DNA of 58,334 nt, filler included, from Dugesia japonica (taxonomy: Eukaryota), in assembly GCA_001938525.1 (NCBI GenBank). It is 5 parts of 5 records of this genome, joined end to end, with 100 filler letters (N's around TTAATTAATTAA, not from the genome) between each part and the next. Parts side by side here need not be neighbours in the genome. Positions count along the whole stretch, not along the records: positions 24,452 to 37,306 come from MQRL01614438.1; 4 more parts are not named here. The stretch is one strand, 5' to 3'. Position 1 is the stretch's first letter, and the number at the start of each line of letters is the position of its first letter. Both the position numbers and the translations under genes were made by a program. The notes beneath the pieces are model-generated. The model saw only the letters and a list, made by a program, of their open reading frames with translations, made no database searches and was not told the DNA's origin. Below, piece by piece: positions 27,110 through 32,025 of the stretch.

Positions 27110-27815
27110 CGGAACCTTTAAATATCATAGACCCTATAATTATGGAACCTTTTAAAATCATAGACCATATAATAATGAAATCTTTAAATATTATAGATCA
27201 TATAAAAATAGAAACTTTTAATATCACTGACCAAATAATTATGGAAACTTAAAAAATCATAGACCATTTAATAATGGAACCTTAAATATCATAGACCATT
27301 TAAAAATGGAACCTTTAAATAACATTGACCATATAAAAAATGGAACCTTTGACCTAATTTAAATTCAATTAGTAATAAATAACCATTAAATTAAAATTAA
27401 ATTAACTTTTAAAAAAATATTCATTTAAAATTAAATATATAAAGAATATAATAAGCTCACCACTTTTATTTTCATAATAAACTCGCCATAATTTGAATTA
27501 AACAATCAATACATATATTGATTGTTTAATTTTATTTACCACAATTGTATTTAAAATTAAACATTTTAATTTCATATTAGAATTTTTAATATTAAATACA
27601 ATTATGCTAATATGAAATTTATATAATAATTATTTGAAAAAAGATATTATGTATTATTTACATAGTTATGCTGAATTGTTTGCATTATTTACATAGTTAC
27701 TGTATATTGTCTTTGAGATATTTCTATAATAAAATATGGCTATTAAAAATATCTAAATAGAGGAGTTCATGGATATTTTCATGATAAAATATTTATATTA
27801 TGTAAATTATGCAGA
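27110..27815 (+). repeat. Left arm of long inverted repeat; 33-bp tandem array (~7 units GGAACCTTTAAATATCATAGACCATATAATTAT) plus palindrome at ~27497-27532
   Basis: Reverse-complement collinear with 30655-32025. Confidence 0.9.
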
Positions 27816-28749
27816 GAGGAGTCTTTATGATATTTCTATTCAAATATATAACTATTAAATTAACCGAAGTAAGGATATTTACATGATAGAATACTCAAAT
27901 TAAAATGTTTCTTACAAAATGATAAAAAACAGAACATTTTTCATAAAAAAATATATTGGTGTGACAGTTTTCCATTAAAAAACATTAGTGATGCAGTTAT
28001 TTCTATAAAACACATTAATTAGGAACGTTTCTGTACAAAACGATANNNNNNNNNNNNNNNNNNNNNNNNNNNNNNNNNNNNNNNNNNNNNNNNNNNNNNN
28101 NNNNNNNNNNNNNNNNNNNNNNNNNNNNNNNNNNNNNNNNNNNNNNNNNNNNNNNNNNNNNNNNNNNNNNNNNNNNNNNNNNNNNNNNNNNNNNNNNNNN
28201 NNNNNNNNNNNNNNNNNNNNNNNNNNNNNNNNNNNNNNNNNNNNNNNNNATGAAATGTAGCAATATATTTCTTTACAATGATAGCACATATATTCCAGTT
28301 CAACAATGAAAGTTAATGTCAAGCAAGTAACCTCCTGCTGATGCATAGCAAGCAACCATTCTTTTACAAAAGTTTTTTATGACATTTTGGTACAACTGGG
28401 GCTTAATTTCACCAATTTCATAGATGATGTTATTCTCAAGATCAAAACTTGTATAAGGATTGCTAATATACACCTTTTCCTTTAAATAACCCTAAAAGAA
28501 AATATATAGAGGCATTAGTTTGTATAATACAAATACATGCAAATAAATATTTCATATGTAATATTGCCTCTTTTTTTGTAAACCGCTATCTAGTATTCTC
28601 CACATAGGTTTGTTGTATGATTATTGGTGATGAAGGCATTGTTTACTAAAACATGCTGATCCAAATAACATTGATACATTTCGTTCAATCTGAGTAGAAT
28701 TAATAAATTAATCAATAAATTAAACAATAACACTTACTTTATTACAATT

Positions 28750-29795
28750 ATTTCAAGAATACATAGCATTGTTTGCACTAATACTGTTCCGTTTTTTTAA
28801 TCTGAATCATTTTTTCAAATACTCAATAAATTATAACATATGCTGATGTTGTTAAAGCTTTGGCAAACTTGATATCCAATCTCAAAGTTGTTGAGGTGGT
28901 TGACTCTGATTTATATCGAAATCTGGAGCAAGAACAAATGTAAAGAAGGGATAATTATCCTTAAACCCCTGAAGTGCTATTCATTAATTCATATTTTTAT
29001 CCGAATATCCCATATTTCACCCTATTGATTGCATATATGTTTAAATGTAACAAAATTAAAGCTAGGTAATCGACGATTGCCAAAGATTTGTTCATTACAA
29101 AACGATGAACTATCTTTACTAAATGCAAAAGCAACAACTTCCTCAGTTCTTATTGGGGGTTCAGTTTGTACTCGTCTAGCTATTAATTTTGCATCTAGTA
29201 ATATATATTTAGGTTCATTAGCTGCAAATTCAAAACAAATCTTAGAAGATGATCATTTCAATCGAATATGAATATTGACACATGGAACAAGGTTTTTATG
29301 GTTGATCCATGAAATCAGGTTTCAAAGAACGACATAGAGATAACTGTTTTGATTTTGCAATAGACTTTTTTCTATCTACTTCTAATCAATATCACATTGC
29401 TGCAAGACATATATTCTTACTGTCACATTATAATTTATTAAAGTTTCAATTAATGCTTTGTGAAGATAAGATCCATTTGCACCTTCAATTTTGAAATTAT
29501 TAAATGAAAGAATTGCATCCTTAACAAGTTTATGCAGCATATAGCTACTAGGAGCTGAATTATCCTTATTAGTTAAATCTTTAACATCCTTATAAACTAT
29601 CTTCACTTTAATATACAATAAAGTATCATTTAAGTCTAAATATTCTGTTTGAGATCCATTTATAAAAAACTCTAAATCGCTTTGCGGTTCGGAAATTAAA
29701 TTCATAGGAAAGACATCGTCAAAATTACTACTTTTAATGACAGCTTGTGGAGATGGTCGATCAAAAATACATTATTCAGTTTTACCGCAAATCAT
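28750..29795 (-). pseudogene. Polinton major capsid protein (PY/hexon), variant 2, near full span with deletions
   Basis: KTE*CIFDRPSPQ...LEFFINGSQTEYLDLNDTLLYIKVKI...YLHKALIETLINY...AKLIARRV...FFTFVLAPD...LRLDIKFAKAL...VIIY*VFEKMIQI. Confidence 0.9.
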
Positions 29796-29924
29796 TTTTC
29801 AAATATTGTTCCATGCCCTCTCATGTGTTTGTTTATACGTGATGAGTGAGGGTTTTTGCGTTTTTCATTAGTTGGTTCTGCTTTTGGTTGATTTGATAGC
29901 ATATTAGATATTTCAGATGGTATT

Positions 29925-30230
29925 TTACTTGTTATATTCTGATATGTTTGCTACTTTTGGGATCCTACTGGTATCTCTACTAGGTAATGATGACACTACA
30001 TTTCCAAGTTCCGCTAATGCATTGGATTTTAATGTTGGTTGTATTTTTCCATTATTAGCTAGTGCATCTTGAGCTATTTTCATGCCAAATGAACCAATTC
30101 GTTTAAGATTAGGCAAAGCGAATCTACTTATTGTTCGCAACCAACCAGATCCATACTCTTTTCCAAGAAATTAAGTCAGTTTTCCGTCTGTTTGACTAGC
30201 ACTATACATTGAAAAAATACCAGGATTCAT
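29925..30230 (-). pseudogene. Small Polinton core-like protein between penton and hexon
   Basis: YGSGWLRTISRFALPNLKRIG...AQDAL fits the GxG..R.A.P.LK small gene seen between capsid genes in Polintons/adintoviruses. Confidence 0.65.
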
Positions 30231-30231
30231 T

Positions 30232-30650
30232 ATAATTTTTCTAAAGTGTAAAGTTTAATAAGTTTTTGAGTCTTTTGCAAACTTTATTAATTTTCCGTTA
30301 TCAACGCGTATATTAATTTCTATATTGTTTATACATGATGTTGCAATAGGTAAATACATTGGATTCTCGACTATTATTTGTACTACATCATCAGTTTCAT
30401 GCTTTTCTATCCATACTGATTTCAACAAAGGTACACTAGCATCACCTACAATGATAGGTTCAACAAGATTTCTATAGATGAATATTTGCTGATGTAACTT
30501 AATTATTTTCAGATTTTCTTCGACTTGTATTACGCCATTTTTTATATCTGCAAGTGAATAATGTTCTTTTTCTAAAGTTGAGCTTTCCTATAGGCGAACT
30601 ATATCAATTCCAAATCAAAAGTGACAAATTTACAATGGTCAAATTTTCAA
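30232..30650 (-). pseudogene. Polinton minor capsid protein (PX/penton), C-terminal half
   Basis: IFIYRNLVEPIIVGDASVPLLK...NPMYLPI...INNIEINIRVDNGKLIKF....T..TLHFRK. Confidence 0.88.
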
Positions 30651-30654
30651 TGAC

Positions 30655-32025
30655 CATCTATGCATAATTTACATAATATAAATATTTTATCATGTAAATA
30701 TCCATGGACTCCTCTCTGTGGTTAATTTTAATTATATTCTATAATAAAACATGTAAATATCCATGGACTCCTCTCGTTGGTTAATTTTAATTATATTCTA
30801 TAATAAAACATGTAAATATCCATAGACTCCTCTCGTTGGTTAATTTTAATTATATTCTATAATAAAACATGTAAATATCCATAGACTCCTCTCGTTGGTT
30901 AATTTTAATTATATTCTATAATAAAACATGTAAATATCCATGGACTCAACTCTTTAGATATTTTTAATAGCCATATTTTATAATAAAAATATCTCAATGC
31001 AGCGTTACTATGTAAATAATACATAAAAAATTTTTAAAAAAAATTATTATATAAATTTCATCATAACAATCAAGATAATATGAAATTAAGCTGTAAATAA
31101 TACAGCGTAACTATGTNNNNNNNNNNNNNNNNNNNNNNNNNNNNNNNNNNNNNNNNNNNNNNNNNNCATGTAAATATCCATAGACTCCTCTCGTTGGTTA
31201 ATTTTAATTATATTCTATAATAAAACATGTAAATATCCATGGACTCAACTCTTTAGATATTTTTAATAGCCATATTTTATAATAAAAATATCTCAATGCA
31301 GCGTTACTATGTAAATAATACATAAAAAATTTTTNNNNNNNNNNNNNNNNNNNNNNNNNNNNNNNNNNNNNNNNNNNNNNNNNNNNNNNNNNNNNNNNNN
31401 NNNNNNNNNNNNNNNNNNNNNNNNNNNNNNNNNNNNNNNNNNNNNNNNNNNNNNNNNNNNNNNNNNNNNNNNNNNNNNNNNNNNNNNNNNNNNNNNNNNG
31501 ATAATAGGAAATTAAGCAATCAATAAATATATTGATTGCTTAATTTCATATTAGCATAATTATTTTTAATAGTAAAATTCTAATATGAAATTAAAATGTT
31601 TAATTTTAAATACAATTGTGGTAAATAAAATTAAACAATCAATATATTTATTGATTGTTTAATTTAAATTATCATAATTGTAATTATGGCGAGTTTATTA
31701 TGAAAATAAAAATGATGAGTTTATTATATTCTTTATATGTTAAATTTTAAATGAATTTTTTTTAAAGTTAATTTAATGTTAATTTAATATTAATTGAATT
31801 TAAATTAGGTCAAAGGTTCCATTTTTATTATGGTCAATGTTATTTAAAGGTTCCATCATTATATAGTCTATGATATTTAAAGGTTCCATAATTATATGGT
31901 CTATGATATTTAAAGGTTACATTATTATATGGTCTATAATATTTAAATGTTCCATTATTAAATGGTCTATAATATTTAAAGGNTCCATTTTTTATATGGT
32001 ATATGAAGTTTAAAGGTTCCATTAA
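30655..32025 (-). repeat. Right arm of long inverted repeat; 59-bp tandem array (30691-30926 and again after the gap), hairpins, 33-bp array (31815-32025)
   Basis: CATGTAAATATCCAT(G/A)GACTCCTCTCGTTGGTTAATTTTAATTATATTCTATAATAAAA x4; reverse complement of 27110-27815. Confidence 0.9.

Follow-up and report, generated by a model that had tools for sequence, protein, structure and literature searches.

The window analysed here, 58,334 nucleotides of Dugesia japonica DNA (assembly GCA_001938525.1) in five parts joined end to end, holds at 27111-32028 the broken remains of a Polinton (Maverick) capsid cassette enclosed by two long inverted arms (Table 1). On the minus strand the order between the arms is penton, small gene, major capsid and then a protease remnant, so that remnants of the Polinton module minor capsid - PW - major capsid - protease stand in their native order. 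Every one of these four genes is broken. Along the 330 codons aligned to its homologue P0001, the major capsid pseudogene has 8 stops and 4 frameshifts and has lost 17 and 48 residues in two deletions, and the cargo as a whole has 11 stops in 607 aligned codons and 5 frameshifts, with a truncated penton. An earlier note on this DNA had placed minor capsid, small core and major capsid genes between the arms; their identity and order stand, while their intactness does not, every one being broken and the penton reduced to its last third. The protease remnant is a weak match backed by gene order.

Gene identity rests on folds and gene order, because the Pfam and PDB sequence searches were empty: Pfam gave no match for any cargo fragment nor for six of seven homologues, and a PDB search with the capsid alignment returned nothing. 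Capsid relatives were not found in IMG/VR, and longer relatives of the cargo fragments numbered 20 and 6. Folds were modelled on two natural homologues, P0001 and P0021. The P0001 model (predicted local distance difference test, pLDDT, 79.5) matches the major capsids of iridovirus, PBCV-1, Sputnik and mavirus (E down to 1.5e-14, template-modelling (TM) score about 0.6) and also viral capsid models, whereas the match of the P0021 model (predicted TM score 0.53) to the mavirus penton (E 7e-7, TM about 0.3) is weaker. With a double-jelly-roll fold, a mavirus penton match and the native order, the capsid and penton gene calls, modelled through homologues, hold. In another database protein, P0020, the first 106 residues of the capsid family are fused to a DUF4371 protein, probably a gene model running across transposon debris.

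Seventy-five related metagenome loci were found, with open reading frames (ORFs) listed for 10. The longest run ATPase - PZ-like - integrase - penton - small gene - major capsid, and several add a protease and a further ORF; the ATPase, PZ, integrase and protease are what we take them to be from motifs and position. This arrangement corresponds to the second Maverick module described in PMC8097293. The collinear order penton-small gene-capsid-protease occurs in loci L002, L006 and L025, and PolB is convergent to the capsid module in L002, L024, L025 and L063. Two penton-like genes stand in tandem at L025:5616-7684, and likewise in L023 and L026. Seventeen profiles were built from the related loci (seven with only one or two members), and the only ones that match between the arms are those of penton, small gene, capsid and protease. 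ATPase and PZ (profiles of 11 and 10 members) have no match in the whole window; the protein-primed PolB and the retroviral-like integrase of Polintons have no profile match between the arms, PolB matching only outside them, where it should be kept in mind that 204 bases between the arms and 215 in the right arm are N. The earlier note's statement that no PolB, integrase or ATPase is visible between the arms is upheld by these profiles. Penton homology stops 82 bases from the inner edge of the right arm, and from 30575 to that arm only a non-significant 13-residue match was found (E 0.04-1.5).

Table 1. Features at and around the inverted arms, positions counted along the window (X1, X3, X7 and X8 are public sequencing runs; P0001 is a capsid homologue; L005 is a related locus)
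Position	Strand	Feature	Basis or remark
24893-26001	-	Broken PolB fragment (N-terminal part, endonuclease VII-like stretch)	Profile E 4e-21 and 6e-7; tblastn
26347-26691	+	Second major-capsid fragment (residues 199-313), other subfamily	42% to P0001, 1 stop
26924-27105		Fragment of a different repeat family, directly next to the left arm	Summed depth 5,349-7,381 in X7/X1/X3, 0 in X8
27111-27817	+	Left arm, part in common with right arm	Self-BLAST, shuffled alignments
27111-27350	+	Left 33-bp array	7 units
27496-27531		AT-rich perfect hairpin, left arm	16-bp stem
27713-28045	+	Inner modular part of left arm	Without right-arm partner beyond about 27906
28046-28249		Assembly gap, 204 N	No listed contig bridges it
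28276-28527	-	C-terminal end of a Tc1/mariner transposase (Tc3-like, DUF4817-headed)	Relatives, Pfam, tblastn
28518-28664	-	Polinton cysteine protease gene, broken remnant (weak match)	Profile E 3e-5, positions 30-75 of 124; 1 stop in 46 codons
28799-29795	-	Major capsid pseudogene (double jelly roll)	69% to P0001 over 330 codons
29795-30230	-	Small gene between penton and major capsid (PW position), broken	51% to L005 ORF; 1 stop, 1 frameshift; profile E 2e-24
30234-30575	-	Penton gene, last third (residues 226-338 of 340)	Homologue alignment; 1 stop
30657-32028	-	Right arm	Includes two N gaps (31117-31166, 31335-31499)
30691-30968	+	59-bp array, right arm	4.7 copies, 95% matches
31167-31334	+	Exact copy of 30868-31035 between two N gaps	100% over 168 bases
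31508-31547 and 31628-31665		Two AT hairpin copies, right arm	
31812-32028	-	Right 33-bp array	6 units

The tail of a Tc1/mariner transposase is joined to the protease remnant, so that the interior between the arms is a mosaic. Its 63-residue ORF at 28303-28491 has 162 relatives at E<=0.001; DUF4817 exceeds its cut-off in 6 of 19 scanned relatives, and we take seven of eight relatives to be transposase-like from their motifs, the other being a repeat protein. What the earlier note listed as one unassigned ORF remnant is therefore the protease remnant together with this transposase end. The stretch 28300-28491 was also considered as the Polinton gene next after the protease and was rejected, an 18-member profile giving no match and scores being low, with a mariner tail found there instead.

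The arms are the strongest repeat of the window. Self-BLAST pairs 27136-27619 with 32028-31542 at 84% over 501 columns (E 1.6e-155), with further inner matches between 27681-27906 and 31023-30784 and between 27722-27817 and 30749-30657, and local alignment scores of 631, 381 (without the array) and 161 stand far above shuffle maxima of 68, 61 and 42 (200 shuffles each). Neither self-BLAST nor a pattern scan found another arm copy anywhere in the 58-kb window. From outside to inside each arm consists of a 33-bp array, a unique AT-rich stretch that contains a perfect hairpin, and an inner module; on the right this module has been amplified into a 59-bp array, while the left has one diverged unit. 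The arms differ in length and modules. In its description of the arms the earlier note is largely confirmed: 27110-27815 and 30655-32025 are diverged reverse complements, each has the 33-bp array at its outer end, the 59-bp unit is amplified on the right, and the AT palindromes of both arms are perfect hairpins with stems of 16-18 bp. The left stem of 16 barely exceeds the shuffle maximum of 15 (300 shuffles). The 33-bp unit pattern has 10 matches in the window, all inside the arrays, against 0 expected, and none in the prokaryote genomes and viral contigs searched; outward of 27111 or 32020 no degenerate units rise above background. The flanks beyond the arrays are unrelated (score 39 vs a shuffle maximum of 42), and both arms end at the outer array edge. 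The arm family is uncharacterised and may be one of Polinton or of foldback terminal inverted repeats (TIRs).

No direct repeats of at least 8 bases link the two boundary windows (exact matches only; mismatched repeats were not scored), and six-mer matches across the boundaries are at chance level (3 seen vs 2.7 expected), which leaves the flanking 6-bp target-site duplications raised in the earlier note without a candidate above chance. The six-base match between 27101-27106 and 32045-32050 was rejected as such a duplication, being at chance level with ends inside that do not match. A Polinton duplication, 5-8 bp long and typically 6, could be hidden by decay or lost ends. The Polinton end motifs AGTAGT, ACTACT, AGAGAG and CTCTCT, which are of vertebrate-element type, are absent from 26600-27400 and 31700-33300 (the (AC)3A type was not scanned).

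The stops in the cargo correspond to a neutral decay of about 11% (5-24% over four mutation models), and arms as old as the cargo should differ by 17-27%, with a lowest bound of 8.5%. The observed difference is 4.7% (12/255) in the unique part and 10-19% in five other segments. This divergence cuts both ways: the arms may be young, with inner domains that are asymmetric, or old, with one tract converted. The arm length in common, about 0.7 kb, lies within the Polinton TIR range of about 50-1,500 bp (PMC10748475, PMC8097293), a criterion of size only. In the three longest related loci, L063, L025 and L002, no TIRs were found. Two long hairpins lie near the left end of L025 (794-957), and L002 starts with a perfect 33-bp repeat (1-127) unrelated to the unit of the window; a 25-mer in the latter is the exact reverse complement of a stretch of the integrase ORF (L002:5112-5136), and the start repeat is probably a chimera.

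The gap between the arms is 204 N long (28046-28249) and not 224 as in the earlier note; among the pieces listed no contig bridges it and none spans the whole stretch. The copy at 31167-31334 is probably an unmerged assembly overlap, so that the right-arm length is overstated. Seven of 12 listed public runs, from three studies, contain all or part of the stretch. For runs X8-X12 the share of its words is 0.00-0.03, X8 alone of these being compared. The comparison comprised X7, X1, X3 and X8 over 26330-30700 at 85% likeness, a range that leaves the right arm outside, with 32 of 53,338 pieces and 24 of 4,164 loose ends listed; the N gap and 26768-26913 are without cover in the runs and uninformative. 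As the tool itself states, summed depth does not measure copy number; it is used here as orders of magnitude. Contigs identical to the window occur at depth 16-22 (27342-27572 in X7 and X1; 27708-27948 in X3), hence the left arm is real sequence, and both sides of the 204-N gap are present in runs of three studies.

Across X7, X1 and X3 the 33-bp array reaches a summed depth of 130,000-240,000 (130,000-140,000 in X7) and the arm interior 284-6,054 (551-2,873 in X7), so that arm bins lie above single-copy depth and the array far above it, in a measure that is not copy number. In X7 the values are 19,118 for the inner module, 545 beside the gap, 5,334-9,440 for the mariner bins, 4,737 for the protease, 22,000-230,000 for the capsid, up to 380,000 for the penton and 1,078 for the penton-arm junction bin; X1 and X3 have similar profiles, and the junction bin, at about 1,100-2,300, is far under the capsid bins. 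X8 has capsid and penton bins of 1.2-1.7 million, a protease bin of 4 and mariner bins of 53,000-82,000, vs 14-320 for the gap-adjacent bins and the array (87-320 for the array itself); this run thus holds Polinton genes but nearly lacks the 33-bp unit and the left-flank repeat. Polinton capsid genes reach about 10,000 times the depth of unique contigs in the four runs, and a capsid and penton summed depth of 0.2-1.7 million vs 16-22 hints at a very large Polinton expansion. Joints leading back into the array indicate longer arrays elsewhere. Four of the five listed pieces of the left-flank repeat seem, from record coordinates, to diverge past 27100-27105, which makes the array start a junction, and in 14 X1 contigs the loose ends at 27913 look, as judged by eye, like the continuation of the window.

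Cargo letters could be followed at 28 sites, which lie among 40 tool-selected rows listed of 719. Non-majority letters make up <1% of the depth at 24, 25 and 26 of these sites, and residual depth is <=35 at 15, 11 and 10 (medians 28, 60 and 96), to be set against 16-22 for window-identical contigs. This points to a private haplotype of the cargo, which is not proof of one copy.

Debris also lies outside the arms, and all strong-hit Polinton debris of the window is confined to 24.9-30.6 kb. In the outer PolB fragment PF02945 scores E 2e-4, under its cut-off. An origin of the two capsid copies by inverted duplication was rejected (DNA score 30 vs a shuffle maximum of 35). Nor is there support for the cargo and the outside PolB being parts of one Polinton, with the cargo inverted: in relatives the capsid and PolB genes converge, an arrangement that turning the cargo round again would not restore. 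The left-flank ORF 26966-27109 has no protein relatives. Adjoining the end of the PolB remnant, 24780-25025 has minus-strand stretches that resemble a Ty3/Gypsy integrase in motifs. The window is AT-rich (GC 0.15-0.35 per kb) with transposon remnants throughout (Ty3/Gypsy reverse transcriptase, mariner), among them a second, diverged Tc3-like mariner remnant at 56530-57225 (minus strand). An ORF of 258 residues at 13465-14241, with an MFS_1-like match (E 5e-9), is the only likely host gene noticed. C-rich modular tandem repeats with periods of 21, 22, 31 and 50 at 33240-34450, whose inverted partner is absent from the window, are possibly one arm of another modular element. The gaps at 9322-9421, 24352-24451, 37307-37406 and 46256-46355 consist of 44 N, 12 bases and 44 N; in one of them the linker carries stops in all frames, so that contig joins there may be arbitrary.

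The structure at 27111-32028 is very likely a dead composite, probably of a single locus, and its likeliest geometry is that of a composite bounded by TIRs. That the arms belonged to one TIR element, the class of this element and the route of capture are what we infer from the observations above. The reading we favour, tentatively and with rather less than even confidence, takes the arms as two long modular TIRs of one foldback-type DNA transposon enclosing dead debris. It is preferred because the arms end at the array edge without Polinton end motifs, are in part far younger than the cargo, and carry an array that does not track the Polinton genes in X8. A non-autonomous foldback-type transposon with an outer 33-bp array and an inner AT-rich domain would have sat in a field of transposon debris, and the enclosed middle, 2.4 kb of dead repeat DNA, would consist of a fragment of a Polinton capsid module that a deletion joined to a mariner transposase tail. 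This DNA may have entered when a break inside the element was repaired from a nearby or abundant template (gap filling), or when a local rearrangement of the element's ends enclosed neighbouring DNA; the composite would produce no capsid and would never have spread as a unit. In foldbacks the long TIRs are built of a tandem-repeat domain and an inner domain, and the middle between them is non-coding and varies (PMC4079207), animal TIR elements make single-copy captures via gap filling with a preference for nearby DNA (PMC8277862), and DNA carried between foldback elements is on record (PMC6431247). Of the earlier note's suggestion that a foldback had captured a viral morphogenesis module, the foldback arm anatomy thus survives as the best fit, while the module is dead debris and not a working one. 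Several points weigh against this reading. The expected 8-10-bp target-site duplication of Mutator type was not found, no donor copy was seen, and listed contigs leave the 204-N gap unbridged. The other arm segments, at 10-19%, fit the age of the cargo, so that gene conversion may account for the 4.7% stretch. Summed depth does not give copy number, weakly conserved Polinton bins are as low as the arm interior (1,078-4,737 in X7), and the X8 protease depth of 4 means that X8 may simply be a diverged lineage.

It is also possible, if rather doubtful, that a single Polinton landed next to an older one and decayed where it stood, the arms being its TIRs; large deletions would have taken ATPase-PZ-integrase with the penton front, and PolB, and a mariner would have inserted and been partly deleted. 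The collinearity of penton, small gene, capsid and protease with related Polintons and the vertebrate module argues for it, as do an arm size inside the 46-1,447 bp TIR range and the degraded state of 96% of vertebrate Maverick loci (PMC8097293). The confinement of strong-hit Polinton debris to one region, an array depth of the same order as the capsid depth in three of four runs, inner arm segments that differ by 10-16% in line with the clock prediction, and the long hairpins near the left end of L025 point the same way, and fewer actors are needed than with a foldback. Yet it requires at least three large deletions, conversion of the 4.7% stretch, and loss of both true ends at the array edge, no known end motif or 6-bp duplication beyond chance being present; the array is almost missing in X8, where Polinton genes peak, and the three longest related loci offer no TIR for comparison. 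An accidental pairing, in which two opposite insertions of one repeat family were later trimmed or contigs were misjoined across the 204-N gap, is unlikely. The gap and the whole stretch are unspanned by any listed contig, the arms are unequal in length and modules, the right arm contains a probable unmerged overlap and the region is a debris field. However, the arm is found nowhere else in 58 kb, both gap sides are present in runs of three studies, and we infer that chance would hardly place an inverted pair within 5 kb, arrays outward and with the same unit boundary, at so modest an interior depth. The favoured reading and these two share a core, dead debris and no working capsid module, of which we are highly confident.

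The transposase 3' end faces the left arm within about 260 bases across the gap, and the element FB4 is annotated as TcMariner (PMC8277862), which would suit arms that are long TIRs of the Tc1/mariner whose tail lies inside, a Polinton piece having replaced the transposase front. Such an origin is very improbable, as the mariner bins of X8 and X7 run far above the gap-adjacent bins, and in X8 also above the array, and no matching TA-flanked ends occur in the sequence. The earlier note's proposal of a capsid-only mini-Polinton or satellite, non-autonomous, amplified, and moved and packaged via full-length Polintons, is scarcely credible. Morphogenesis genes are the only Polinton profile matches between the arms, abundant Polinton genes in the runs mean that helpers would exist, and this copy could be an old family member with intact relatives; but the four genes are all broken and the penton truncated, a mariner tail lies inside, the penton-arm junction bin is low, and the cargo haplotype gives no sign of amplification. 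There is likewise only a slight chance that the locus is an old dead member of a capsid-only short TIR family copied or packaged by full-length Polintons, which abound in the host, or of a foldback family repeatedly moving capsid modules, with younger intact members elsewhere.

The locus is a real but ordinary fossil TIR composite made of known parts, and as it stands is of little import, the genome around it being of animal type, rich in repeats and roughly 25% GC. It serves as a warning that inverted arms around capsid genes can come from ordinary nesting and deletion where Polintons abound, and it leaves two leads of some value, the uncharacterised arm family and the hinted Polinton expansion. 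Were a capsid-only family real, it would be a satellite-like Polinton parasite and indirect evidence for Polinton virions. In our literature search, with most subscription papers outside its coverage, neither a capsid-only Polinton satellite nor a foldback with Polinton genes inside it is described.

The foldback types known include FB, Galileo and the sea-urchin TU elements, these last with a described layout, and non-autonomous Polintons are present in Repbase. Tlr1 elements are sometimes termed non-autonomous Polintons (PMC5499653). The locus resembles Polinton/Maverick (adintovirus-type) fossils in having the vertebrate Maverick order of minor capsid - PW - major capsid - protease, in its double-jelly-roll capsid, and in an erosion by stops and frameshifts like that of most vertebrate loci (PMC8097293). 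Unlike them, it has no PolB, integrase, ATPase or PZ between the arms and no known end motif or 6-bp duplication, measures 3.1 kb (27817 to 30657) plus arms instead of 13-25 kb, and has a mariner tail inside. The C. elegans eri-6/7 locus, with nested Polinton remnants, solitary TIRs and inversions, offers a model for arms of Polinton origin; its TIRs were shown to flank full Polintons, whereas for the window arms that link would be hypothetical (10.1101/2024.01.15.575659). Animal Pack-TIRs, including Ssk-FB4, likewise hold a fragment between TIR ends, apparently single copy, with similar DNA nearby, but they are defined by non-transposon cargo with a parental copy, while here the cargo is of transposon or viral origin with no parent seen and about ten times the Pack-TIR median of 224 bp (PMC8277862). 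Foldbacks differ in that the two arms here have no outer flanking domain in common, no 8-10-bp duplication and no transposase link, and that the middle is transposon debris. Like the foldback Tetris of Drosophila virilis, however, the locus has long modular arms with tandem-repeat and inner domains, and a repeat unit far commoner than the rest of the arm; its middle, which contains no intact gene, may answer to the variable non-coding middle of that element (PMC4079207).

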